Source: Nitrospirae bacterium RIFCSPLOWO2_02_FULL_62_14 (lineage in GTDB: Bacteria; Nitrospirota; Nitrospiria; Nitrospirales; Nitrospiraceae). Taken from it: a stretch of DNA of 57,109 bases. The stretch covers positions 1 through 57,109 of the forward strand of contig MHEU01000067.1 in assembly GCA_001805245.1 (NCBI GenBank), in the 5' to 3' direction. Each line of letters starts with the position of its first letter. Positions within the stretch are counted from its first letter, which is position 1. The position numbers were made by a program, and so were the translations under genes. The notes under the pieces were generated by a model. The model worked only from the letters and a program-made list of their open reading frames with translations. It ran no database searches and was not told the DNA's origin. Below, piece after piece: positions 7,455 to 23,352 of this stretch.

Positions 7455-7466
7455 AACGCGTTACGC
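7373..7466. repeat. family-E heptamer dyad (CTCATCA words)
   Basis: Left arm is cagtaat gagtgat g. Right arm is ctcatca ctcgtaa ctcatca ctcataa cgcgtta. Spans the DUF692-gene stop and the dus start. Confidence 0.7.
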
Positions 7467-8927
7467 TCCCACCTGTTCACAGGCTGCCTGGTAGCCTTCC
7501 CGCAAAGCCTGCGCTTCCCGCACGGCCGTGCCGGATGCGGCCGGCAGCACTTCGCGGACGAACTCGACGAAGCGGGTGATCTTGAGCAGGAAAAAATCGT
7601 AGGCCTGATCGTTTGCGCGCGGCTCGCGGAACCAGAACCGGACGAACGCATCCAGTGCGATACCGGCACGATCCAAGTCCCGGCAGGTCTCCGGGAACAT
7701 CTCGTGCACCGCGCCGCCCCATTCCAGAATCTCGTGCGGCAGGTAATGCTCGACATAGAGCGGCAGCGCCGAGGCATCCCCGCCGAGAACCGGCAACCCG
7801 GATGCCGCCCGTCCCGTGACGATCTGCGCGTAGCGGTCGTATTGCTCCACTAGCCTGCCGTCGGCAGGCGTGGAGCACGCGCGACGAGCGGGACGCGCGC
7901 GACTTGCGCGAATCGAGTCTCGCCTTTCGCGCCTTTCCCGCCAGTCTCGCGCGACACGGTTACCAAACCGTTCGCAGGCTTGTGCAAATTCCTCCACGAT
8001 CGTCGGAATCGGCTTGGTGTCCACTTCCAGCGCCACGCCCTTGAGATTGACGAGCCCTCGATGCTCGAGCACCTGCGCCAGCATGTCGGAAAGCACGTCC
8101 GGGATCGGCGCGCCGTGCGCGTCGATCCAGAGCGGCGGCTCTCCGTCCGGGCGCGCGCGGGACGGCACGGCCTGATGCAGCGCCAGCCCGGCCATGTGGA
8201 TCTCGACGACGCGCTCCAATGGAAAGGCTTCCAGGAACCCGGCCAGGAATGCCGCGAGCGGACGCCGGCGCCACTCGCCCGTGTAGCGATAGACGGTCCA
8301 GAGATGGCCGATGTCCAAGACGACGCCGCAGGGCGTGCGGTCGGTCACGAGGCGGAAAAACTCCGCCATCGTCAGGTCGCCGAAGCCCACGTAGGTGAGC
8401 GGCGGCGTTTCGAGCAGGAACAGCGGGCCCATCCCATCATGGCCATTGCGGCCGGCGCGCGCGCGGAAAGCCCGGTCCAACCGCTGCTGCGCCTGCGCGA
8501 TGTTCGCCGCCGTCACGTCGGCGCTCGCAGCGGTGAACAATGCCGGCAGATAGGTGCCGAACGCATGGCCGGCCATCTGCTTGGCGGCGCATTCATGGTT
8601 CAGCCAATGACTGTCGAGGATGCCGAGCTGTTCGGCGGCCTCGTCGAGCCCGGCGTGAAACGGCGAGAGCGTTTCGGGATCCGGCTGCGTCACCCAGAGC
8701 CCTTCGGCGTGATACGAGAGCAGGACGCCGGGCAGTCGCCGGCGCAGTACTTCCAGCGCGGAGGGCGCAGCTTTGAAAATTTCGAGATAGCCGTAGTCCA
8801 ATCCGCGACGGTTTAATGCCCCGACCAGCTCGAACAGGTCGGGCTGGTAGACGTCCACGGACAGGCCGAGCCCGTGGTGCGGGATGCGGGCGACGCGATC
8901 AAGAAACTCTCGTTCAATGGGTGTCAT
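7461..8927 (-). CDS. DUF692-family (multinuclear non-heme iron oxidase, MbnB-like) protein fused to a ~135-aa C-terminal domain
   Basis: N-terminal ~325 aa (HHGLGLSVDV ... EIHMAG ... WIDAHG ... LEVD) resembles the DUF692 TIM-barrel family. The C-terminal part may be DUF2063-like, which is unverified. Confidence 0.7.
   Translation of the reverse strand: MTPIEREFLDRVARIPHHGLGLSVDVYQPDLFELVGALNRRGLDYGYLEIFKAAPSALEVLRRRLPGVLLSYHAEGLWVTQPDPETLSPFHAGLDEAAEQLGILDSHWLNHECAAKQMAGHAFGTYLPALFTAASADVTAANIAQAQQRLDRAFRARAGRNGHDGMGPLFLLETPPLTYVGFGDLTMAEFFRLVTDRTPCGVVLDIGHLWTVYRYTGEWRRRPLAAFLAGFLEAFPLERVVEIHMAGLALHQAVPSRARPDGEPPLWIDAHGAPIPDVLSDMLAQVLEHRGLVNLKGVALEVDTKPIPTIVEEFAQACERFGNRVARDWRERRERRDSIRASRARPARRACSTPADGRLVEQYDRYAQIVTGRAASGLPVLGGDASALPLYVEHYLPHEILEWGGAVHEMFPETCRDLDRAGIALDAFVRFWFREPRANDQAYDFFLLKITRFVEFVREVLPAASGTAVREAQALREGYQAACEQVGA
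7866..7950. repeat. family-D element D1, located inside the DUF692 ORF
   Basis: gacttgcgcgaatcgagtctcgcctttcgcgcctttcccgccagtctcgc closely parallels the intergenic copy D3. Confidence 0.75.
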
Positions 8928-11779: not shown

Positions 11780-12505
11780 ATGATTCCTCTTCACGACGAT
11801 AACCCGACCGAGATCACGCCGATGGTGACGATCGCGCTGATCGTCCTCTGCTCGCTCGTGTTTCTCTACGAAGTGTCGCTGCCGGAGAAGGTCGGCGAGG
11901 CGTTCGTCTTCCAGTACGGCGCGATCCCCGCCTCGATCTTCGGGCACGAGTCGGACCTCCCCGAGGACGCAGTCGGATTTCCCATCACGCTCACGTTGCT
12001 CACCAGCATGTTCCTGCACGCCGGCTGGATGCACCTGATCGGCAACATGCTCTACCTCTGGATCTTCGGCAACAATATTGAGGACGTGATGGGCCACGTG
12101 AAGTTCGTCATCTTCTACGTCGTCTGCGGCATCTTCGCCGCGATGAGCCACGCGCTGACCGATCCCTCGTCCGCCATACCGATGGTCGGCGCGAGCGGAG
12201 CCATTTCGGGCGTCCTCGGCGCCTACCTGCTGCTCTTCCCGCGCGCGCAGGTGCTCGTGGTGATCCCGCTCGGCATCTTCATGCGCACGATGTACGTGCC
12301 GGCGGGGTTCGTGCTCGGGTTCTGGTTCGTCCTGCAGCTCCTCAGCGGCGGGATCAGCATGGGCCAGGGCGGCGGAGGCGTGGCGTGGTTCGCGCACGTG
12401 GGCGGGTTCGTCGCGGGGATGGCGCTGATCGGGCTGTTCAAGCGGCCGGATGTCCGCTTCTTCGCCCCGGCGCGGCACCGGGGATGGCATAGCTCAGATT
12501 GGTGA
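11780..12505 (+). CDS. rhomboid-family intramembrane serine protease
   Basis: HLIGNMLYLWIFG, GASGAISGVLGAY and AHVGGFVAG motifs. Confidence 0.85.
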   Translation: MIPLHDDNPTEITPMVTIALIVLCSLVFLYEVSLPEKVGEAFVFQYGAIPASIFGHESDLPEDAVGFPITLTLLTSMFLHAGWMHLIGNMLYLWIFGNNIEDVMGHVKFVIFYVVCGIFAAMSHALTDPSSAIPMVGASGAISGVLGAYLLLFPRAQVLVVIPLGIFMRTMYVPAGFVLGFWFVLQLLSGGISMGQGGGGVAWFAHVGGFVAGMALIGLFKRPDVRFFAPARHRGWHSSDW

Positions 12506-12511
12506 GCAAAC

Positions 12512-12690
12512 GGCTGACGAAGGGTGAGAGCGGGGTGATAGAGCTGCTCGCTCCCGCACCTTTCAGAGCGACCCTTCCGGGCTCTGCCGGGCGGAAGCCT
12601 TCGGAAATTCCCTCGCAGACTCGGTCAGTTTCCGCTTTCCTTCCCGGCAGAGCCTCGGTGGGTACCCCGCTCCTCCGGTGAAGTCCGCTC
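12512..12690 (+). repeat. family-H long element, left copy (sense to the rhomboid gene)
   Basis: Aligns with the reverse complement of 12960..13232, e.g. gagcgacccttccgggct and agcctcggtgggtaccccgct. Confidence 0.8.
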
Positions 12691-12707
12691 GCAGCCATAC
12701 CACCCCT

Positions 12708-12756
12708 CTTTAAAAACTGGAACGGGAACCGGTCGCTTGTAGACCGGTTCCCGTTC
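12708..12756 (-). terminator. perfect 15-bp-stem hairpin with T-run on the minus strand
   Basis: Stem gaacgggaaccggtc / gaccggttcccgttc with loop gcttgta. The minus strand continues cagtttttaaag. Confidence 0.6.
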
Positions 12757-12904
12757 AACGCTTCGCCAAGTTCAGCAGGCTACTTCGGTAGTGAGTGTTT
12801 TTCAGATCTTGGATGTCCCCGTTTTCTTTGCCCGAAACTGAGTGGCGGCCGGATGCTGGAGAGCGCGAATCCTTCACCACGCAAGAAATAGGTGCGCGAA
12901 GCGG

Positions 12905-12947
12905 AAAGGTGACGGGTCCATCAGCGGCCTGTCACCTTTCCCCTTTT
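12905..12947 (+). terminator. intrinsic-terminator-like hairpin, sequence relative of 10446..10487
   Basis: Stem aaaggtgacggg ... cctgtcaccttt, then ccccttttat. Confidence 0.55.
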
Positions 12948-12959
12948 ATAAAGGGGATG

Positions 12960-13232
12960 TCGCGCTTGAAGCGACTTTGCCGAAGAAGCGGGGCACCCAC
13001 CGAGGCTTCAGCGAGTAGGAAAGCTGGAACTGACTGAGGCACCGCGATCGCAGATCGCGGCTGAAGGAATTCCAGAAGGTTTCCGCGAGCTGAAGCCCGG
13101 AAGGGTCGCTTCGAGAGGCGCGGAAGCGGAGAGCGCGACTTCCCCGTTTAGCCCTTCGCCAGCCGTCATTCCGAGAGGTGCGGAAGCGAGCGGCAGTACC
13201 ACCCCGCTCCCACCTTTTGTCAGTCCAGAGGA
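12960..13232 (-). repeat. family-H long element, right copy (sense to purE) with an internal duplication
   Basis: The reverse complement aligns with 12512..12690. The segment ...cgcttccgcacctctcg... occurs twice. Confidence 0.8.
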
Positions 13233-13286
13233 AAAACCTGCTTGCGACAGATGCACAGGCCTCGCAGGCTATCCAGTCTTCATCGG

Positions 13287-13805
13287 CTACTTCTTGGATC
13301 CACGCGACGCTTCGAGCACCGCGCGGGTCTGATCAGCCCGGAACTGTATCACCTTGTCACGAATCTCCGGATAGCGAACGGCCAGGATCTGCGCCGCCAG
13401 CAACCCGGCGTTTTCCGCTCCGCCGATCGCCACGGTCGCCACCGGGACGCCTTTCGGCATCTGCACCATCGACAGCAGCGAATCGAGGCCCCTGAGGTTC
13501 TCGGTGGGAATCGGCAGGCCGATGACCGGCAGATGCGTCTTCGCCGCCACGGCGCCCGGCAGGGCCGCCGCGCCGCCCGCGCCCGCCACGATGACCTCGA
13601 TGCCCCGCCCGGCCGCCTGCTCGACATACTGCGCGAGCTGATCCGGCGTCCGGTGGGCCGACAGCACCACCAGCTCGTTCGCGATCCCCAACTGGTCCAG
13701 GATCGCGACCGCCTTTTCAAGCACCGGGACATCGGTTTTGCTTCCGCCCACGATTGCCACCATCGGTGCCGTCTTCCCGCGTTCCCCTTCGCGCCGACCC
13801 GCCAT
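13287..13805 (-). CDS. purE: N5-carboxyaminoimidazole ribonucleotide mutase
   Basis: [20 protein letters not shown] and AGGAAALPG motifs. ATG at 13805 with a GGAGGA RBS. Confidence 0.9.
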
Positions 13806-14051
13806 ACTATTCCTCCATACCAAGCTTTGCTTGAGCCGCTGGCTCTTTTTTGCTTGATCGTACTTGCCGCCAGCAGAGAAACCCCTCCAGTGTTTCCGGG
13901 AATTCTCGCTTCCGCCCCGGATAAGATCCTTAACCGGAGGCCCCACCTTAAACGTTGTCTCCGCCACGGGTCAAGAACCCAATGATTTGACGCACTTCGG
14001 ATTATCCCGTATGATAAAAAAAGAAGCTATTCATACGACTACGAGGGACCC

Positions 14052-15488
14052 GTGCCCTATTCCCCCGAAAGCGTCAAAGCTGCCGTCAAGCGGGTCACCG
14101 ACTACCCCACCAGCCTCGTCGCCATGCAGGTCGACGATCTGGCCACCTCCACACAATTGCGATCGTGGGAACTGGTGCAGGTTCCGGCCTACCTCCGTCG
14201 TTACGGATGGTGGGCGATCCGAATGCTGCTGCTGGGATTTTTTCTGCTCATGTTCGTGCCCTGGACCCAGACCATCAATGTCTCCGGCCAGCTCTCCGCC
14301 TACTCGCCCTACGAGCGGCCGCAGGACATCGAGGCGCAGATCCAGGCGCGGTTCAAGAAGTGGCATGTCCTCGAGGGCGTGCGCGTCAAGCAGGGCGAGC
14401 TGATTCTCGAACTGGAGGACATCGACCCGAATTTCATGGCGCCGGAACTGCTCTCGCTGCTCGATCAGCAGAAAGTCGCGCTGGAGCAAACCCGCAAGGC
14501 GGCGCTGGACCGGGCCGGCCAGCTCGAAAAGCGGATCGGCGAGATGGAAAACCTCGTTAAGGCGGCCGTGCCGTCGGCGGAAGCGCGGGTGAGCGAAGCC
14601 GAGAATCGCGTGCGCGCCGCCGAGCAGCGCATCGTGGCCGCCAAGGTCGCCTACGACACTGCCGAGCTGAACGTGGACCGGCACCGGCAGCTTTCGACGC
14701 AGGGTCTTGTTTCCCAGCGCGAATTGGAACTGACGATCCAGGCCGCGATCGGCAGCAAGGCCGAACTGAAAGGAGCCGAAGCACAGCTCAAGGAAGCCCA
14801 GCAAAACATGAGAGCGCTGAGCTTCGGCCGGGACCAGATCAGCGCCGACGTCGTGCAGCAGCTGCTCAAGGCGGAAGCCATGCGGGCGGAAGCGCTCGCC
14901 GCCGCCGCCATGGCCGCCGACCAGCTGGCCTCGATCAGCCTTCGTCTCTCCAACGCCACGCAGCGCCGCCTCTACAGCCGCATCGTCGCTCCCATTGACG
15001 GCACGGTCGTGAAAATGGCTGAAGTGGGCGTCGGTGAAACGGTCAAGCCGGGGGAAAAGCTGGTTCGCATCTCGCCGACCAGCGCGGACAAGGCCGTGGA
15101 GATGGTGGCCGAAGGCCTCGACGCGCCGCTGCTGAACCCCGGCCGCAAAGTGCGGCTGCTGTTTTACGGCATCCCCGCCATTCCCCTTCCCGCCTGGCCC
15201 GAGTTGATGGCCGGCACCTTCGGCGGCGTCATCAAGGTCGTGGACCAGGTGGACGACGGCAAGGGCAATTTCCGTTTCTGGGTCGTGCCCGACCCCGACG
15301 ACCGCCCGTGGCCGGAACAGTCCCACGTGCGGCAGGGCACCAAGGTGATGGGCTGGGTCATTCTGAACCGTGTCCCCCTGTGGTACGAACTCTGGCGCCG
15401 GTTCAACCTGTTCCCGCCGGATTACCAGGAAGGGCCTCCCTCCCTGCTGGATACGCTGCTCCCCAAGGCAGGGCGGGGCGCAAAGTAG
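14052..15488 (+). CDS. HlyD-family membrane fusion protein
   Basis: N-terminal TM segment, long coiled-coil segment (AEARVSEAENRVRAAEQRIVAAK...) and barrel-sandwich segments. GTG start. Confidence 0.8.
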   Translation: MPYSPESVKAAVKRVTDYPTSLVAMQVDDLATSTQLRSWELVQVPAYLRRYGWWAIRMLLLGFFLLMFVPWTQTINVSGQLSAYSPYERPQDIEAQIQARFKKWHVLEGVRVKQGELILELEDIDPNFMAPELLSLLDQQKVALEQTRKAALDRAGQLEKRIGEMENLVKAAVPSAEARVSEAENRVRAAEQRIVAAKVAYDTAELNVDRHRQLSTQGLVSQRELELTIQAAIGSKAELKGAEAQLKEAQQNMRALSFGRDQISADVVQQLLKAEAMRAEALAAAAMAADQLASISLRLSNATQRRLYSRIVAPIDGTVVKMAEVGVGETVKPGEKLVRISPTSADKAVEMVAEGLDAPLLNPGRKVRLLFYGIPAIPLPAWPELMAGTFGGVIKVVDQVDDGKGNFRFWVVPDPDDRPWPEQSHVRQGTKVMGWVILNRVPLWYELWRRFNLFPPDYQEGPPSLLDTLLPKAGRGAK

Positions 15489-15592
15489 CCACGCGCGCGC
15501 CCGTCACGCAATCGTATTTTCTCTCGAAGGCGCACCGCCTTCAGACCCTCATCACCATCGTCTTGCTCTTCACTCGTAGAAAGGAGTCTTCC

Positions 15593-17083
15593 ATGGCACG
15601 CTTCGTCCTGTTCGCCGTCTTCACCGTCCTGCTGTCGGGCTGGCTGGCCCCGCCGGCTTCCGGCGCCGAGGCCGACGCTCCCAGACAAAAACCCCTGCCG
15701 GCGATTCCGCTCAGCCTCAACGAAGTGCTGGCGTGGATCGACCGGTCCCATCCGTTGCTGCAGGGAGCCGGCACGGAGAAAGTGTCGGCCCGCGGCAAAA
15801 TGCTCCGGGCCCTCGGCGCCTTTGAGCCGACGCTCGTCAACGACATGGAAATGGAGCGGTTTATCTCCAGCACGAGACCGGATAAGGGCACCCAAACCGT
15901 CGGGTTCAACGACACCTTTCTGGACCTCCGGCATCAATCCGGCATCAGGGGCTCCGCCGGCATCCGCCAATCCATCGGTACGGCGACAATTCCGGACTTG
16001 GGATTCGACAATAACAATCAGCAGGTTCTCCTCGGCGGCTTCATCCCGCTGCTGCGGGGGTTGATGGTCAATCCGGAAAACGCCGAGTTGCAGCGCTCGG
16101 GACTGGCCGATCCGCGCGCCGACATCGAGATCGCGCAGACCCGCCAGGATCTGTTTCTGGCCGCGGCCTCGCAATACTGGGAATGGGTGGCCGCCTGGAA
16201 GCTGGCGGACGTGCAGCAACGGGCCCTGAAGGTCGCTGAAGACCGGTTCAACCAGATCGAAGGGCGCGCCAAGAAGGGCCTGTCCGCTCCGCTCGACGCG
16301 GTCGAAGCCAACCAGGAAGTCCAGCGGCGCAAGGAGATCCTGATCGCCGCGACCCGCGCCGTCGAGCAGGAACAGTACAAGCTCTCGCTCTTCCTCTGGG
16401 ACAACGGCACGCCGGTATCGCCGGCGGGCGCACGCGTGCCGGACTTCCCGAAAGTCCTGCCGCTCCCTCTGCCCGAGACCGTCAAGGCCGACAAGCTGGC
16501 GGCGCGCGCCTCGCGCCCGGAAGTTCTGGCCGTCGGCATCGAGGCCAAGCTGAATAACATCGACTTGGAGCTCGCCAAGAATAATCTATTACCCAGCCTG
16601 GACCTTGAGGCGGCTCCTTCTCGAACGCCGGAAAAATTCGTGCTGGGCCTCGGCTACCGGTTCGGGGCCGAGTTCAAGATGCCGTTCCTCCAGCGCAGGG
16701 CCCGCGGCGAAGCGCTGGAAGCGCAGGGCAAGGCGGACCGCCTGGTCCTGACGCAGCGGTTCCGCGAACAGCAAGTGCTCGTGGATGTGGACAACGCGCT
16801 CTCCGCCGTCGAGCGCGCGAAGCAGCGCATCGACGCGGCCTTTCAGTCCCTGCAGCTCGCCAAGACGCTGGAAGACGGCGAGCGGTTCCGATTCAGCCTC
16901 GGCGCCACGAGCGTGTTGTTCGTGAATCTGCGCGAACGTCTCGCGGTGGATTCCGAGAACCAGTGGATCCGGGCCGTCGCCGACTACCAGCGGGCGCTGG
17001 CCCAGTATCAATGGGCGACCGGCACCTGGGCCAAAGCGCCGGCGTCGGTGATTCCCGTGACCTACAAACCGGCGTTGAAGTGA
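15593..17083 (+). CDS. TolC-like outer membrane efflux protein
   Basis: Signal peptide MARFVLFAVFTVLLSGWLAPPASGA. ATG at 15593 with an AAGGAG RBS. Two-repeat OEP-like helical sequence. Confidence 0.8.
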   Translation: MARFVLFAVFTVLLSGWLAPPASGAEADAPRQKPLPAIPLSLNEVLAWIDRSHPLLQGAGTEKVSARGKMLRALGAFEPTLVNDMEMERFISSTRPDKGTQTVGFNDTFLDLRHQSGIRGSAGIRQSIGTATIPDLGFDNNNQQVLLGGFIPLLRGLMVNPENAELQRSGLADPRADIEIAQTRQDLFLAAASQYWEWVAAWKLADVQQRALKVAEDRFNQIEGRAKKGLSAPLDAVEANQEVQRRKEILIAATRAVEQEQYKLSLFLWDNGTPVSPAGARVPDFPKVLPLPLPETVKADKLAARASRPEVLAVGIEAKLNNIDLELAKNNLLPSLDLEAAPSRTPEKFVLGLGYRFGAEFKMPFLQRRARGEALEAQGKADRLVLTQRFREQQVLVDVDNALSAVERAKQRIDAAFQSLQLAKTLEDGERFRFSLGATSVLFVNLRERLAVDSENQWIRAVADYQRALAQYQWATGTWAKAPASVIPVTYKPALK

Positions 17084-17267
17084 GGGTGCAAGTGTGCCTG
17101 ATTCATGGCGGATACGCGCATGAATCAGGACGGCTGAATAGCTTTTTCCGGAGACCTTTGATACGCTGCGGCCCGTCCAAGGCCGTGCGCGACCTCACAG
17201 GGCATCTTCCGCAGCTAAAGGAGCGCTGAGGGCAGCCCCGCATGGCGGGCTGCCTCGCAACGACAGC

Positions 17268-18944
17268 ATGCCCAACGAGAAAACCGAAAGGCGTTTCGCC
17301 TCCCAGGGCCTGTTGCGGGCGACCATGACCCGCTTGAGCCTCTTTCTCCAGTTCGAAAAGAAGATCCTGGCGATCATTTTCGCCTACGCGCTCGCCATCG
17401 GCGTGTTCGCACTCATCGTACCGCTCACCGTCCAGGAACTGGTCAACACGTTCGCCTACGCCCTGCAGCCGATCATGATCATCACACTGGCCGGCGTGAT
17501 GGCGATCACCCTGGTGGTGATGGGATCCTTTCGGGTGTTGCAGTCCCGCGCCGTCGAAATCCTCATCCAGCGCCTCTACGCACGGATCGCGCTGGGCCTG
17601 ACCCGGCAGCTGCCGCGCTTCCGCAACGTGGAGTTCTCCCCCAAATACGCCAACTATTTCATGGAAGCCGAGCTGCTGCCGCGCGCGCTCGTGGCGATGC
17701 TGGCCGACATCGTGAACGTCTGCGTCGGCGGCGCGATCGGCATGATGATTCTCGTCATGTATCACCCCTATTTCATCATCTTCAACACCCTGCTGGTCGG
17801 CGGCTTCGCGGCGATCATCACGATCCTCGGGCGCGGCGGGCTCAAGATCACCATGGATGTCTCGCGCCACAATTACGCCACGATGAACTGGATCCAGGAC
17901 ATCGCCAACAACCTCCTGCATTTCAAGGCCACCGCGAGCACGCCCCTGCTCATGAAGAAAACCGACGAGCTGGTCCACGCCTACGTGGCGGCCAGAAAGA
18001 TCCGGTCCGACATCCTGACCGGCACGCAATACAAAGGGTCGGTCATCTGGCAGGCCCTCGGGCACAGCGGCCTGATCGCCACGGCCGGCTGGCTCCTGGC
18101 CGCCGGGCAGATTACGCTGGGACAGTTCGTGGCCTCCGAGGTCATCGTCGGCACCCTGCTCCTGAACCTGGACGTGCTGGCACGCCGGATGTACGCCGTG
18201 TATTACGTCTTCACCTCCCTGCACGAATTGGATTTCCTTTTTTCGATGCCCAAGGACGAGGAGCAGGGCAAGCTGTCCGTCCCTCTGCCCGATCCGACCG
18301 TGCACGGGGTCCGCCTGACCTGCAAGGACGTGTCGTTCGCCTATCCGAATTCCCCGTCGACGTTCCAGCACTTCAACATCGAAGTGGCGCCGGGCGAAAA
18401 AATCGCCATCTTCTCCGCCACCAGCACCGGCAAAACCACGCTGGCCCGCGTGCTCGCCGGCCTGTACGCGCCGACGAGCGGCTTGATCCGCTATAACGGC
18501 GTGGACCTCCGCGACCTGGACATGGACTCGCTGAACGCCTGCCGCGGATTGATCCTGGATTCGCAGCTCACGCTGTTCGAAAGCACGCTGGAAGAGAACC
18601 TCACGATGGGGCGGACGGTCCACTACGAGGACATCCGCTGGGCCCTGCGCTTCGTGGAACTGGAGGATGAGGTGGATGCCATGCCGCTGGGACTGCGGAC
18701 GCCGGTCACCCTCGACGGCAAGGGGTTCACCACCAGCCAGACGCTCCGCCTGCTGGTCGCGCGGGCGATCGTCGCGCGCCCGCAGATCCTGATCCTCGAC
18801 GGCACCCTGCACGGCATGCTGCCGGCCATGCGGGAGACGATCCTGCGCCGCCTGTGCAGCAAAGAGGAGCCCTGGTCGGTGATCTTCGTCTCCAACGATC
18901 CGTCCCTGACCGCGCACGTGGATCGCCGGGTCATGCTGGAATGA
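17268..18944 (+). CDS. ABC exporter (6-TM domain + NBD) with degenerate NBD motifs
   Basis: Type-I exporter-like TMD. The NBD aligns to HlyB-type NBDs, but the Walker A, signature, Walker B and H-loop are all non-canonical (see findings). Confidence 0.8.
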   Translation: MPNEKTERRFASQGLLRATMTRLSLFLQFEKKILAIIFAYALAIGVFALIVPLTVQELVNTFAYALQPIMIITLAGVMAITLVVMGSFRVLQSRAVEILIQRLYARIALGLTRQLPRFRNVEFSPKYANYFMEAELLPRALVAMLADIVNVCVGGAIGMMILVMYHPYFIIFNTLLVGGFAAIITILGRGGLKITMDVSRHNYATMNWIQDIANNLLHFKATASTPLLMKKTDELVHAYVAARKIRSDILTGTQYKGSVIWQALGHSGLIATAGWLLAAGQITLGQFVASEVIVGTLLLNLDVLARRMYAVYYVFTSLHELDFLFSMPKDEEQGKLSVPLPDPTVHGVRLTCKDVSFAYPNSPSTFQHFNIEVAPGEKIAIFSATSTGKTTLARVLAGLYAPTSGLIRYNGVDLRDLDMDSLNACRGLILDSQLTLFESTLEENLTMGRTVHYEDIRWALRFVELEDEVDAMPLGLRTPVTLDGKGFTTSQTLRLLVARAIVARPQILILDGTLHGMLPAMRETILRRLCSKEEPWSVIFVSNDPSLTAHVDRRVMLE

Positions 18945-19065
18945 GACGCTCCCTCCGCTTGCACCCCCGCGCCGAACAGGCGGGCCGCTTCTCACGTCAG
19001 GGACAATCTGTTAGACTGACAGGGCTCGGCCTTCTTCAAGGGCCGGCCATACCGGAGAACGCATC

Positions 19066-19857
19066 GTGACGCGTCGCATGATCGGCCTACTGCCGAGGCC
19101 GACCTGGAAACAGATCGTCGTCAGCCTCCTGATTGCCGGCCTCGGGCTGCTGGCCTCCCGCGCCCTCAGCCAGGTCAACCAGGACATCACGCTCATGTAT
19201 GCGGAATACACGCTGGGCGCGACGGAGCTCGCCCATATCTCGGCGGACGTGATCCGGTTCCGGACCACGATCATCCGGGCCCTTGAGGCCCAGACGAGAC
19301 AGGATTTCGAGCGTATCACGTCGTCCCTGCCGGATCAGCGCGCCCGCATCCAGCACTCCATCGACCGCTACGCCGCCGCCAGCCTGCGGGTCTCCCGGAG
19401 CGGACGGAGCGAGGAGGACGACCTTCACGCCGTGAAGGAAAGCCTGGACGCCTATTTCCAGGCCTACAGCAAGACCATGTTGCTGATGACGCAGATGTGG
19501 ACTGCGGCCACTCCCACGGAAGCCGCTGCGTTGCGGACGCAGGCGGAACACCACGCCGCAGACAACGCGGGGCCGAAGTTGATCCAGGTCAGCCTGGCGC
19601 TGGACCGCCTCCTGGAAACCGTCGCCGACGTCGCCAAGGACATGCGGGACGAAGGCACCCAGACCCTGCGTGAGACGAGCAGCACGCTGATCGTCGGCAG
19701 CCTTCTGATCGCCGCGTTGAATCTGTTCCTGGGTCGTTCGCCGGAACCGGGGCGACCCGCCGAATCCCCCGTGTCCGGAAGCGGTAATGGAGAAACCGTC
19801 CTCACGCCCCGCCGCGTCAAGCAGGAATACGCAGACCCCGCCCTTCGCCAGAACTAA
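19066..19857 (+). CDS. two-TM protein with a 4-helix-bundle (4HB_MCP-like) periplasmic domain and no output domain
   Basis: TM1 VVSLLIAGLGLLASRAL, a ~170-aa helical region, TM2 LIVGSLLIAALNLFLG, then a short Pro/Ser tail. Confidence 0.5.
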   Translation: MTRRMIGLLPRPTWKQIVVSLLIAGLGLLASRALSQVNQDITLMYAEYTLGATELAHISADVIRFRTTIIRALEAQTRQDFERITSSLPDQRARIQHSIDRYAAASLRVSRSGRSEEDDLHAVKESLDAYFQAYSKTMLLMTQMWTAATPTEAAALRTQAEHHAADNAGPKLIQVSLALDRLLETVADVAKDMRDEGTQTLRETSSTLIVGSLLIAALNLFLGRSPEPGRPAESPVSGSGNGETVLTPRRVKQEYADPALRQN

Positions 19858-19876
19858 GAACCCCCCGCAGCACAAG

Positions 19877-19996
19877 CAGTCGAAAGTCGGAAAGTCTATC
19901 TGGGTTCTTGTCTATCAAGTCGGAAAGTCCGTCAAGTCATAAAGTCCATATGGCCTGAAGACGTTACGACTTTAAGGACTTGATGACTTTTTGACG
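19877..19996. repeat. family-B dyad repeat, copy B2 (contains family-A words)
   Basis: agtcgaaagtcggaaagtc tatctgggttcttgtctatc aagtcggaaagtcc ... gactttaaggacttgatgacttttt. Confidence 0.8.
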
Positions 19997-20029
19997 CTCG
20001 AATCGAAACCGGCGGCCTTTTTCAATATC

Positions 20030-20524
20030 CTATTTGCAGGGATGGGCGGCCGGTGGAAACGCCCGCACGCAACCGTCTGTCGTCAACGGGAACCGGAACG
20101 CGCCGAGCGGCGTGTCGATCAGCAGCGAGACCACAAGGCGATAGGCCACCTCCCCGCGGCGCTCGAGCGCCGTCAGCGTGCGCTGGAGATCGGCCAGCCC
20201 GATGGCGACGGACACCGGCACCCGCGCGGTGCCGTGCGGCGCCAGCGCCACCCCGCCCGGCGACGCGCCGGATGTGAACGGCCGTCCCTCGATTTGCAAC
20301 ACGTAGTCGTATTCCTTGACGTTCATCTCGCCGTCGCCTGGATTGAGCAGTTCCACATCGAACCGCAGGGCGATCGTGCGCAGATCGAACCCGACCACGG
20401 CCACCGACACCGATCGCACCATGGGCTTGGTGGTGAGGCCTTCCACGGTGCGGCATCCGCCGAGCCCGAACACCGCGACCGCCGCCATCGCGCAGGTCCA
20501 TCCGGCGGCGGCGGCCCGCCTCAC
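20030..20524 (-). CDS. LEA_2/WHy-like lipoprotein
   Basis: Lipobox FGLGGC. FDVELLNPGDGEMNVKEYDYVLQIEGRPF is typical of LEA14-like domains. Start is GTG 20524 or ATG 20488. Confidence 0.55.
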   Translation of the reverse strand: MRRAAAAGWTCAMAAVAVFGLGGCRTVEGLTTKPMVRSVSVAVVGFDLRTIALRFDVELLNPGDGEMNVKEYDYVLQIEGRPFTSGASPGGVALAPHGTARVPVSVAIGLADLQRTLTALERRGEVAYRLVVSLLIDTPLGAFRFPLTTDGCVRAFPPAAHPCK

Positions 20525-20589
20525 CCGCCTACGCAGGAAGCCACGGCTGTCAGGCCGTGGAGGAATGCGAGCGGGTGTCCGCCAAAGCC

Positions 20590-20781
20590 TCGCCGTCGCC
20601 AAAGCAGCTATGGCGCGTCGGCGACTTGGCGAAGGCGGACATGCTTCGTCGGGTTCCGCCGAAGTCAACAAGGGGACCACGGCTGCCCGGCTTCCGCCGC
20701 CGAAGCTGTTTCCGTCTTCGCGAGAGGGTCGAAGCCGCTTCGGCGGAGTCCCTCGGCGGAGTAGGCTCAGACCATGAAGCT
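20590..20781 (-). repeat. family-H element directly after the rluF stop codon
   Basis: Repeated cttcggcgg / ccgccgaag words. Shares tcggcggagtaggctc with 1262..1345. Confidence 0.6.
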
Positions 20782-21576
20782 TCACGTCCCCGCTCCCTGC
20801 CGCGCGGAGCGCTGCAACGTGGCGAATAATTCCTCCTGCTCGCGCTCCGCCAGATTCTTCCACTGCCCGACGGCCAGGCCCTCGATCGTGATGTTCATGA
20901 TCCGGATGCGGTGGAGCGCCGTCACGCGATAGCCCAGCGTTTCGCACATGCGCCGGATCTGCCGGTTCCGGCCTTCCGTGAGGATGATGCGGAACTCCCG
21001 CGGGCCGCGCCGGCTGACCGTGCAGGGCTTCGTCTTTTTGTCCAGAATGACCACTCCGCCGGCCATGCGATCCAGAAAGCTCTGGTCGAACGGCCGGTCC
21101 ACCTGCACGAGGTATTCCTTCTCGTGACCGTGCTCGGCGCGCAGAACCTGGTTGACGATTTCGCCGTCGTTCGTTAGCAGGATCAACCCGGAGGAATCCT
21201 TGTCGAGGCGGCCGATGGGGAAAATCCTCTGCGCGTGACCGATGAAGGCGATGATGTTGTCCGGCACATCCAGCTCGCAGGTGGTCGTGACACCGAGCGG
21301 CTTGTGAAACTTGATATAGACCGGCCGGTTGCCCCACGGGATGACTGTGCCGTCGCGGGCCACGGTGTCGCCGGGCACCACCCGGTCGCCCAGCTTGGCG
21401 ACGCGGCCGTTGATCGTGATGCGCCCCGACTCGATCCATTGGTCGGCTTCGCGCCGCGACCCGATGCCCTGCTGGGTAAAAAATTTGTTGATCCGACACG
21501 CGTCAGGCGAAACACGGGCCGCAGGTTTGTCCTGCGACGCCGGACGGGTCTTCTTGATGAGTTTTGGCGACACCAT
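20782..21576 (-). CDS. rluF: RluF/RsuA-family 23S rRNA pseudouridine synthase
   Basis: S4 domain (RINKFFTQQGIGSRREAD), catalytic GRLDKDSSGLILLTNDG, and HEKEY. Confidence 0.8.
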   Translation of the reverse strand: MVSPKLIKKTRPASQDKPAARVSPDACRINKFFTQQGIGSRREADQWIESGRITINGRVAKLGDRVVPGDTVARDGTVIPWGNRPVYIKFHKPLGVTTTCELDVPDNIIAFIGHAQRIFPIGRLDKDSSGLILLTNDGEIVNQVLRAEHGHEKEYLVQVDRPFDQSFLDRMAGGVVILDKKTKPCTVSRRGPREFRIILTEGRNRQIRRMCETLGYRVTALHRIRIMNITIEGLAVGQWKNLAEREQEELFATLQRSARQGAGT

Positions 21577-21684: not shown

Positions 21685-22638
21685 TCATCGTTTTTTCTTG
21701 CGCCGGCGGTGGCGCTGCCCTGCGCGGATGCGGCCGAGCATCCGGTAAATCAGCCGCGCGACGGTGAATTGCGGCGCCGCAAAGCCCTCGATGGGCGCAA
21801 TCTCGCTGATGTCCATGCCGATGATGCCGGGCCCGTTCGCCAGCGCGGTGACGAGCGCCAGCGTATCGTACCAGCCGAGACCACCCGGCTCCGGCGTCCC
21901 CAATGCCGGCACTAACGACGCATCGAGCCCGTCGCAATCGAACGTCAGATAGACCGGACGCCCCTTGCAGGCTTTCACGACGGCCGGCACCCATTTGGCC
22001 GCCTGCCCCTTGTAGGGCCCGCCGGGATCGCAAATCTGCGCGGCGAAAAAGGTGCTGATGGTCTTGGTATTGCGGATCGTGCTGATTTCCTCCGGCGAAA
22101 TGGACCGGATGCCGACCTGCACGAGCGGCAGGCCGTCCTGCACGACGCGGGCCATCACGCTCGCGTGGCTGTAGGGATTGTCCTGGTACGCCTTGCGCAG
22201 GTCGCCGTGCGCGTCGATCTGCACCACGCACAGATCCGGCCACTGTTTCGCGTGGGCGCGGATCGCGCCGAGGGCGCCGGTGTGCTCGCCGGTGAGCGTG
22301 ACGACGAGACGGCCCGGCTTCACGTGCGGACGGACGAACGCCTCGATGGCATCCACCGCCGCCTTGTCCACTCTGCCCTTGAGATCGAGCGGCTCGGCGG
22401 TCGCCACGCCGCCCCAGTCCCGATAGATTTCCGAGTCGAGCGTTTCGTCATAGAGTTCGACCTGCTGGGAGGCTTCGATGATCGCGGACGGACCCTTGTC
22501 GGATCCGAGAATGTAGCTGGAGGTGTGCTCGTAGGGCGCGGGCATCACGTAGACGCCCGCCTGCGCGGGGTTGCACCAGGGCTCGCCGATGCCGAGAAAA
22601 TTCCGATCCTGGCCGAGCCAGCCGGCCGGCACCGCCAT
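21685..22638 (-). CDS. speB: agmatinase (ureohydrolase family)
   Basis: VQIDAHGDLR, LTFDCDGLD and GMDISEIAP motifs. Lies downstream of pdaD. Confidence 0.8.
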   Translation of the reverse strand: MAVPAGWLGQDRNFLGIGEPWCNPAQAGVYVMPAPYEHTSSYILGSDKGPSAIIEASQQVELYDETLDSEIYRDWGGVATAEPLDLKGRVDKAAVDAIEAFVRPHVKPGRLVVTLTGEHTGALGAIRAHAKQWPDLCVVQIDAHGDLRKAYQDNPYSHASVMARVVQDGLPLVQVGIRSISPEEISTIRNTKTISTFFAAQICDPGGPYKGQAAKWVPAVVKACKGRPVYLTFDCDGLDASLVPALGTPEPGGLGWYDTLALVTALANGPGIIGMDISEIAPIEGFAAPQFTVARLIYRMLGRIRAGQRHRRRKKKR

Positions 22639-22782: not shown

Positions 22783-23352
22783 TTACCTCTTGCGCGCGGG
22801 AGGAAGATTCTCCAACGGGATGAACACCGCCAGGGCCACGACCGTCGTCCAGCGGTTGGCCTTGCCGATCGCGGACTGGGTGATGTTGAGCGTGCGGACG
22901 ATCTTGCCGCCCATCTTGAACACCTGCTCGCGCTCTTTCCACGCGATGTTGGAATCGAATTCGATGCCCAGGGTGGTGGCCAGCATCTGCGCGGCCAGGT
23001 CTTCCGTGTATTCGCCCGACTCCTCGTCGGTTTCGCCGTAGGCGTGATGCTCGGAGAGATAGCCGTAGGTCCGCCGGTCCGTCGGAATCGCCAGGCCGAT
23101 GGACGCGGAGATCAGCCGGTTGCGTTCGTTGGTTTCAGACCGGGCCATGACGCAGTGGGTGATTTCACCCGGATTGAGCAATTTCTCGCCGCGGCTTCTC
23201 GGAACGATTTTGCAGTTGGGCGGATAAATGGAGGAGACGCTGACCAGGTTGCAGTAGGCGACGCCGGCACTGCGCAGCGCTTCCTCGAATGATGCCAGTT
23301 TCTCCCGGTGCACTCCCACGCCCCGGCTCAGGAACATGTGCGTTGGAACCAT
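22783..23352 (-). CDS. pdaD: pyruvoyl-dependent arginine decarboxylase
   Basis: MVPTHMFLSRGVGVH ... NLVSVSSIYPP, the self-cleavage region typical of PdaD. Confidence 0.85.
   Translation of the reverse strand: MVPTHMFLSRGVGVHREKLASFEEALRSAGVAYCNLVSVSSIYPPNCKIVPRSRGEKLLNPGEITHCVMARSETNERNRLISASIGLAIPTDRRTYGYLSEHHAYGETDEESGEYTEDLAAQMLATTLGIEFDSNIAWKEREQVFKMGGKIVRTLNITQSAIGKANRWTTVVALAVFIPLENLPPARKR

Follow-up and report, generated by a model that had tools for sequence, protein, structure and literature searches.

We analysed a 57,109-nt stretch of the genome of Nitrospirae bacterium RIFCSPLOWO2_02_FULL_62_14 (assembly GCA_001805245.1, contig MHEU01000067.1; the whole stretch is called the window below). 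It carries a chromosomal cassette of four genes, five in some genomes, that is conserved in Nitrospiraceae. The cassette encodes a membrane-fusion protein (MFP), an outer-membrane factor (OMF), a protein with the predicted fold of an ATP-binding cassette (ABC) exporter, and a four-helix-bundle (4HB) protein. The ABC protein is degenerate in every catalytic motif of its nucleotide-binding domain (NBD), the replacement residues are near-invariant in the family, and, as far as the motifs tell, the protein probably works without hydrolysing ATP itself. We slightly favour the view that the cassette builds a tripartite TolC-type conduit on an ABC pseudo-ATPase. The genes of the cassette are as follows.

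14052..15488, + strand: HlyD-family MFP, 478 aa (Pfam HlyD_3, TIGR01843)
15593..17083, + strand: TolC-type OMF, 496 aa (Pfam OEP)
17268..18944, + strand: ABC-exporter-fold protein, 558 aa, with a predicted catalytically dead NBD-like domain
19066..19857, + strand: 4HB protein with two transmembrane (TM) helices, 263 aa, fourth conserved cassette gene (PF12729)

An earlier reading of the window, made from its letters and open reading frames (ORFs) and called the sequence-only reading here, had proposed a set of MFP, OMF and ABC genes resembling a type I secretion system (T1SS). This set was borne out: all three ORFs are present where they had been placed, with Pfam matches to HlyD_3, OEP and ABC_tran, respectively. 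The fourth conserved gene (19066-19857) had been missed.

Conservation of the cassette in Nitrospiraceae

A scan of species-representative genomes matched 401 stretches, and the best 80 of these were nearly all from Nitrospiraceae, including the complete chromosome of Ca. Nitrospira defluvii and N. lenta. The locus-based counts given below refer to 109 ABC gene copies from 82 loci (about 80 Nitrospiraceae genomes). The scan relied on two peptides picked as the most conserved, TLGQFVASE being one of them. The ABC homologs carry the names Nitrospira, Nitrospirae or Nitrospiraceae. The typical gene order, observed in essentially all loci long enough to judge, was purE on the minus strand, followed by MFP, OMF, one or two ABC genes and the 4HB gene on the plus strand, and then rluB and agmatinase on the minus strand.

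The statement of the sequence-only reading that there is only one ABC gene held for the window, in which tblastn detected no second ABC gene over the 57 kb, but not for all related loci. Two tandem full-length ABC paralogs were present in 25 of the 82 loci, and in each of these neither copy had a canonical Walker B Glu, H-loop or signature. A second half-transporter gene with consensus motifs, by which a heterodimeric exporter would be recognised, was thus found neither in the window nor in the two-paralog loci.

ABC copy number appears to be in flux: in locus L018 (5524-9885) the order is ABC-4HB-ABC, and in locus L002 (8157-9789) the first ABC paralog is split into two overlapping pieces, resembling a pseudogene, beside an intact second copy.

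Degeneracy of the catalytic motifs

The ABC protein matched ABC_tran (PF00005) with 55.1 bits over residues 367-511. The registry of its motifs was taken from a phmmer alignment to solved canonical NBDs (ABCB19 and ABCB1) and from a search of the PDB with the family profile. Misalignment of the motifs was considered and rejected, since both searches against the PDB gave one unambiguous registry. The motif positions are as follows.

18414..18437, + strand: Walker A remnant SATSTGKT, aligned with GGSGSGKS (canonical GxxGxGK[ST])
18558..18569, + strand: Q-loop position DSQL; Gln in 88/120 homologs, otherwise His, Arg or Pro; D-S conserved
18726..18740, + strand: signature remnant FTTSQ, aligned with LSGGQ
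18786..18803, + strand: Walker B ILILDG, aligned with ILLLDE
18786..18812, + strand: remnant of Walker B and the D-loop, ILILD-G-T-L-H; a near-invariant Gly stands in for the catalytic Glu, and a near-invariant His occupies the D-loop Ser position
18885..18902, + strand: H-loop region FVSNDP, a family hallmark; the His is replaced by Asn, and VSND is aligned with IAHR

The D-loop is also lost, with HGML at the position of SALD. Of the elements that mark a hydrolysis-competent NBD (Walker A, Walker B, LSGGQ, the H-loop His and the D-loop SALD), none was found in canonical form in the window's protein, which keeps the GKT core of Walker A and the Walker B Asp. The degeneracy of all catalytic motifs had been read correctly beforehand, with exact nucleotide coordinates, and the profile alignment proposed to verify the registry, when run here, revealed no canonical Glu, His or LSGGQ elsewhere in the protein.

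The absence of a C39 peptidase domain, also claimed earlier, was confirmed, as Pfam gave no PF03412 match in the ABC protein. No C39 or C39-like domain (CLD) is possible because the ORF opens at the first start codon past an in-frame stop; residue 12 already lies in the elbow helix of the AlphaFold2 (AF2) model. No NCBIfam model reached its cutoff for the ABC protein or for the sister clade described below. The best scores for the ABC protein were 147.6 bits for TIGR03796 (cutoff 853.3) and 145.2 bits for TIGR03797 (cutoff 709.4), and the HlyB model TIGR01846 gave 93.8 bits against a cutoff of 725.

Selection on the degenerate domain

The conservation of the substitutions was assessed in 120 homologs with 63-100% identity, nearly all of 554-563 aa; the few exceptions reach up to 567 aa or are truncated. 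K389 was present in all 120, G512 (at the position of the catalytic Glu) in 114, H515 in 113, N543 (at the position of the H-loop His) in 116 and D544 in 119. In the 109 copies from the 82 loci, those of Ca. N. defluvii and N. lenta included, the canonical Glu of Walker B, the His of the H-loop and LSGGQ were absent throughout; D-G-[TSI]-L-H was near-invariant, F[VI]SNDP occurred in almost all 109 copies, and the signature varied among FTTSQ, LAPTH, FAPTH and LTRSQ, none of which is canonical. The pattern is neither a product of chance nor strain-specific, because it is kept in both of these sets. The sequence-only reading had named orthologs as the means to tell constraint from decay in one strain, and such decay was not seen.

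The ORF in the window is intact at 558 aa, a length that the ABC homologs share down to an identity of 63%. Against relatives at 76-86% identity, dN/dS was 0.13-0.29 for the NBD part and 0.18-0.30 for the transmembrane domain (TMD), and mean column conservation over 105 copies was 0.756 in the NBD-like domain versus 0.693 in the TMD. Judged by these sequence comparisons, the degeneracy is under purifying selection, with no decay.

The elements for nucleotide binding are less constant. In many members, Walker A reads AxTxxAKT or SxTSxSKT and the Gly before the Lys is gone, being Ala, Ser or Asp across the family; the Lys itself is near-invariant and is missing in copy 1 of locus L038 and in P0123. 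The Walker B Asp is changed to Glu or Asn in many paralogs, and the Q-loop Gln is variable. The P-loop is missing altogether from two divergent 50%-identity clusters, P0122 (TTDARVKS) and P0123 (CETETVRH), and P0123 still lies in an orthologous cassette together with an MFP of 64% and an OMF of 60% identity. Nucleotide binding is therefore not a family constant, as the P-loop Gly or the Walker B Asp is lost in many members. The earlier proposal that the protein binds nucleotide without hydrolysing it thus stands as a possibility for the window's protein, in which GKT is kept, but does not extend to the family, where the P-loop Gly is replaced by Ala or Ser or the loop is lost.

Predicted fold of the ABC protein

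The ABC protein is predicted to adopt the fold of a type-IV ABC exporter half-transporter. Its AF2 model has a pLDDT of 74.9, with a poorly predicted helical subdomain at residues 433-500. The best Foldseek match was HlyB in the HlyB/D complex (8dck_A, E 2e-21, TM-score 0.74), and the other leading matches were TM287/288, PCAT1, TmrAB and PrtD. PF00664 was not detected in the TMD at E<0.01; the full-length NCBIfam models of T1SS and bacteriocin ABC proteins align from residue 9. The domains and conserved peptides are as follows.

17268..18287, + strand: TMD, residues 1-340, with an elbow helix and six long TM helices (AF2)
18288..18944, + strand: NBD-like putative pseudo-ATPase domain, residues 341-558 (PF00005)
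17427..17453, + strand: TVQELVNTF, the 9-mer with the highest conservation in the family (0.98, 105 copies), predicted to lie at the periplasmic end of TM1
18114..18140, + strand: TLGQFVASE at the predicted periplasmic start of TM6 (conservation 0.95; one of the two search peptides)

The top motifs of the TMD all map to helix ends predicted to face the periplasm: TVQELVNTF in TM1, MYHPYF in TM3/4 and TLGQFVASE in TM6.

MFP, OMF and 4HB proteins

The MFP matched HlyD_3 (PF13437) with 29.9 bits (cutoff 22.2) and aligned with the type_I_hlyD model TIGR01843 at residues 50-369 with 73.5 bits, under the cutoff of 208; a weak match to the EmrA model TIGR00998 was also obtained. It has a cytoplasmic N-terminus and a single TM helix at about residues 51-77. 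In nearly all loci, an ortholog of equal length precedes the ABC gene. The OMF matched OEP (PF02321) with 104.8 bits (cutoff 22), has an N-terminal signal peptide (hydrophobic residues 1-23) without a lipobox, and is syntenic in all loci. Against relatives at 76-86% identity, dN/dS was 0.12-0.14 for the MFP and 0.12-0.16 for the OMF.

The 4HB protein matched 4HB_MCP_1 (PF12729) with 41.3 bits (cutoff 27). Two TM helices (residues 16-35 and 204-225) enclose a predicted periplasmic four-helix bundle of the chemoreceptor type; the AF2 model (pLDDT 79) has helices at residues 14-73 and 150-221, and the roughly 40 residues that follow TM2 form a disordered tail (pLDDT <50). The top Foldseek matches of the model were chemoreceptor ligand-binding domains (Vc1313, MCP2201, PcaY and Tar), with a probability of about 1 and a weak E value of 5e-3. 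The protein thus shares with methyl-accepting chemotaxis proteins (MCPs) the arrangement of two TM helices flanking a periplasmic 4HB ligand-binding domain and differs from them in that the Pfam scan detected no HAMP, kinase or MCP signalling domain and no output domain. Homologs of the protein range from 245 to 302 aa, mostly 255-270 aa, every source name that bears a taxon is Nitrospir*, and the gene lies directly 3' of the ABC gene or genes in nearly all Nitrospiraceae loci. For the 4HB protein, Foldseek ranked first a chemoreceptor domain that binds D-Arg and D-Lys (8bsa, E 5e-3), and polyamine genes lie near the cassette, which is possibly a coincidence.

A sister clade outside Nitrospiraceae

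In an exhaustive profile search, the Nitrospiraceae family was narrow, comprising three full-length clusters at 50% identity with scores of 687-897 bits. After a steep drop, a large set of proteins of 550-790 aa followed at 320-380 bits, with generic source names, from Myxococcota and Alphaproteobacteria metagenome-assembled genomes. We regard this set as a distinct sister clade, because the solved T1SS and PCAT ABC proteins (ComA, PCAT1 and HlyB) scored no more than about 115 bits when the PDB was searched with the family profile. The clade bears a motif similar to TVQELVNTF, VAVQSLVNTVAF, and the counterpart of TLGQFVASE reads QLTLGQLVAAE.

Three sister contexts were ABC-MFP-OMF cassettes with a single ABC gene each (L083 10001-15185, L085 6178-11400 and L086 1692-6669), and their MFPs were 33-37% identical to that of the window. 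A 4HB gene was not found beside the ABC gene in these three cassettes or in the divergent member L087. The L083, L085 and L086 cassettes come from Myxococcota and metagenome contigs and encode ABC proteins of 717-754 aa.

Of the sister proteins, 141 full-length representatives were compared: the Walker B Glu was missing in 87, the H-loop His in 100 and both in 72; 138 had no S-G-G in the signature, and a single one was fully canonical. Walker A was mostly intact. A bias of the profile towards degenerate proteins was rejected as the source of this result, since TMD-only scores were equal with or without the Glu and the His. The N-terminal extension of about 190 aa in the sister proteins had no Pfam match even at E=10; a resemblance to a CLD is conceivable. 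The picture suggested by these counts is one of T1SS-like cassettes in which the hydrolytic residues would be widely dispensable, with Nitrospiraceae as the most eroded branch, in which the extension of about 190 aa would have been lost too. The annotation "ABC transporter ATP-binding protein" given to the sister clade probably overstates its function.

Cargo search and genomic neighbourhood

No gene for a linked cargo was found, in agreement with the sequence-only reading. A six-frame search of the 57-kb window revealed no RTX (GGxGxD) repeat cluster, and neither the cassette, with its intergenic gaps, nor the adjacent DNA holds a small ORF that could plausibly encode a cargo. The kinds of cargo linked to T1SSs, an RTX or C-terminal-signal protein or a double-glycine (GG) leader peptide, are thus lacking within the window; an unlinked cargo is still conceivable. 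The conserved neighbours are housekeeping genes of purine, pseudouridine and polyamine metabolism. PADLOC matched no known defence system, and Rfam detected no structured RNA in positions 12000-21000.

13987..14015, + strand: sigma-70-like promoter candidate TTGACG-17-TATGAT, 5' of the MFP gene (consensus scan)

This promoter is given as a candidate only because, although it is the sole match in the region, the number of matches does not exceed that expected by chance.

Upstream of the cassette, the gene at 7461-8927 (-) encodes a 488-aa protein with an MbnB/TglH/ChrH (DUF692) domain (PF05114, 54 bits), which is about twice the usual length of this domain; the gene is syntenic in locus L003, beside a Dus gene. 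A cargo-maturation link of this gene, which lies 5 kb upstream of the cassette, was rejected, as unrelated genes intervene and the two are not adjacent in L001 and L002. Between the rhomboid gene and purE lies a non-coding element of about 780 bp (12506-13287) with long imperfect inverted repeats, whose arms span about 12514-12685 and 12973-13223. The element also occurs in the closest relative, L007, with 82% identity over 384 nt. Its position is filled by purK in 52 other Nitrospiraceae loci, and tblastn found no purK anywhere in the 57-kb window.

Downstream, a gene at about 20030-20500 (-), between the 4HB gene and rluB, encodes a small protein of the LEA_2 family (PF03168), in which LGGC resembles a lipobox. 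It was placed outside the cassette because L003 has it but L001 and L002 do not. Agmatinase (21685-22638, -) and a pyruvoyl-dependent arginine decarboxylase (22783-23352, -) follow as convergent conserved neighbours; the former recurs in nearly all loci, and the latter was seen in the loci with gene calls.

Comparison with known systems

T1SSs (HlyB/HlyD/TolC, PrtDEF and LssBD) and related tripartite ABC efflux assemblies have the same set of three components, namely a half-transporter with the type-IV ABC fold, an HlyD-type MFP with one TM helix and a cytoplasmic N-terminus, and a TolC-family OMF; HlyB was the best structural match. The cassette differs from them in having no catalytic motifs, no C39 domain or CLD and no linked RTX or GG-leader cargo, in its additional 4HB protein, and in that its ABC protein scores under every curated cutoff. 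Among the NCBIfam models, the best were those of the NHLP bacteriocin export pair (TIGR03796/TIGR03797), which likewise combines two ABC proteins with an HlyD protein, as in the two-paralog Nitrospira genomes; however, the scores here are far below the cutoffs, and a peptidase domain and an NHLP precursor gene are absent.

Heterodimeric type-IV exporters (TM287/288, TmrAB, BmrCD and MsRv1273c/72c; also the eukaryotic ABCC proteins, TAP and CFTR) retain the fold despite replacements in Walker B (Glu), the H-loop (His) and the signature, and their structural matches to the window's ABC protein were of similar quality. Exporters with one degenerate site are common, and they combine this dead site with an essential consensus site (PMC7756269), whereas both sites are degenerate here and the P-loop is eroding within the family. 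CFTR and SUR1/2 show that the exporter fold can serve gating or regulation, and set an example of a site that binds ATP but does not hydrolyse it productively; unlike the present protein, they keep one hydrolytic site and are eukaryotic, full-length and without a tripartite envelope partner. In EmrAB-TolC, an HlyD-family MFP and a TolC duct are paired with an inner-membrane component that functions without ATP hydrolysis (reviewed in PMC8277102), but that component belongs to the major facilitator superfamily (MFS); here it has the ABC fold, and no proton-coupling residues were identified in it.

In the literature, degenerate sites are described only singly and paired with an active one, and the inner-membrane components of tripartite systems and T1SSs are energised (PMC7756269, PMC8277102). 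Full-text searches returned no description of a fully degenerate T1SS-type ABC protein or of this Nitrospira cassette. A SecA_DEAD/HlyD/peptidase-M50 module reported for Nitrospirae (PMC4452313) was set aside as a different system that contains no ABC homolog.

Proposed function and alternative explanations

The NBDs of ABC transporters dimerise head to tail, one subunit contributing Walker A, Walker B and the H-loop to each site and the other the signature and D-loop. As both sets of elements are degenerate here, a homodimer would have two dead sites, and any heterodimer would be impaired at both. The exchange of the catalytic residues for a family-specific set suggests that transport would not be powered by ATP hydrolysis of the protein itself. 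In the tripartite conduit, which we consider somewhat more probable than not, the OMF, the HlyD-type MFP and an inner-membrane dimer of the ABC-fold protein would form an envelope-spanning duct of the TolC type, with the dimer as its inner-membrane base. The NBD-like domains may act as a cytoplasmic module for dimerisation, gating or docking. Export of an unlinked substrate could be passive and gated, or could be driven by another energy source, of which the proton motive force (PMF) is a candidate, as in EmrAB-TolC. The sensor-like 4HB subunit would be an accessory and a possible input to the conduit.

Several points weigh against the conduit. Neither a substrate nor an energy source was identified for the cassette, and the predicted loss of ATPase activity is deduced from motifs. 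The gaps between the cassette genes are 105-184 bp, and co-transcription is thus only possible. The window's ABC protein, with its G-K-T and Walker B Asp, could bind ATP and conceivably hydrolyse it very slowly, and the conserved charged or polar residues H515, D544 and D431 at the would-be active site could form a rewired site. The portion of the genome inspected was 57 kb, and heterodimers with one degenerate site are widespread (PMC7756269), so that a partner encoded elsewhere has to be considered.

The least unlikely of the alternatives is that the cassette forms a non-transport scaffold or signalling device across the envelope, in which the ABC-fold dimer, the MFP and the OMF would make up a static bridge and the 4HB protein would sense a periplasmic ligand and relay it to the cytoplasmic NBD-like domains via contacts in the membrane, by analogy with SUR, an ABC protein acting as a regulatory subunit. 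The dead ATPase, the missing cargo gene and the NBD-like domain being the most conserved part would fit such a device, as would the tight co-conservation of a sensor-type 4HB gene that has no output domain of its own. However, L087 and the three sister cassettes share the MFP/OMF/ABC core with no 4HB gene beside the ABC gene, an OMF and an MFP with a long hairpin are otherwise known only as ducts, and no downstream effector is evident. It is also improbable that the ABC protein is a cryptic, rewired ATPase, which would bind ATP or another nucleotide, hydrolyse it slowly via non-canonical residues such as H515 or D544/N543 and make the system an ordinary ATP-driven exporter. K389 and T390 are near-invariant, G388 and D511 are present in the window's clade, the near-invariant replacement residues at active-site positions are polar or charged in a highly constrained NBD, and Walker A is mostly canonical in the sister clade. 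Against this, the P-loop Gly, the Walker B Asp and the Q-loop Gln vary across the family, P0122 and P0123 have no P-loop, and the loss of the Walker B Glu or of the H-loop His alone essentially abolishes hydrolysis (PMC7756269, PMC7544095).

A partnership with an unlinked canonical ABC half-transporter, as in TM287/288, TmrAB and BmrCD, would explain a degenerate half-transporter and gains weight from the two points on genome coverage and common heterodimers given above, but we regard it as very unlikely. From the architecture of the NBD dimer, known subunits with a dead Walker B and H-loop keep a good signature, whereas both sets of elements are dead here; moreover, the second gene in the 25 two-paralog loci is itself a degenerate tandem paralog, and the sister cassettes have a single ABC gene. 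Degeneracy in all ATPase motifs could also indicate a decaying relic in the source strain. This explanation is refuted by the intact 558-aa ORF, the same-length homologs, a dN/dS of 0.17-0.30 for the ABC gene, the near-invariant replacement residues and the presence of the cassette in the 401 stretches of species-representative genomes.

Implications

According to the accepted view of ABC exporters and T1SSs, at least one consensus ATP site powers transport; here both sites appear dead, and the ABC protein is still under strong purifying selection, within a full MFP/OMF cassette kept across Nitrospiraceae. We tentatively suggest, at somewhat less than even confidence, that a T1SS-derived clade comprising Nitrospiraceae and the sister cassettes of Myxococcota, Alphaproteobacteria and others has abandoned ATP hydrolysis by its ABC protein, and that Nitrospiraceae have also given up canonical ATP binding. 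If true, these would be the first transporters or channels with the ABC exporter fold that are independent of ATP hydrolysis at both sites, being gated or energised by the PMF, a substrate gradient or a ligand sensed by the 4HB protein. Three outcomes are possible, each of them instructive: the ABC fold could work in an ATP-independent mode, it could harbour a new non-canonical catalytic constellation, or it could serve a new regulatory purpose. Attention is also drawn to a large sister clade that is generically annotated. In Nitrospiraceae, which are globally important nitrite oxidisers, the series from members that keep the P-loop to members that have lost it would provide a natural experiment on the roles of NBDs besides hydrolysis.

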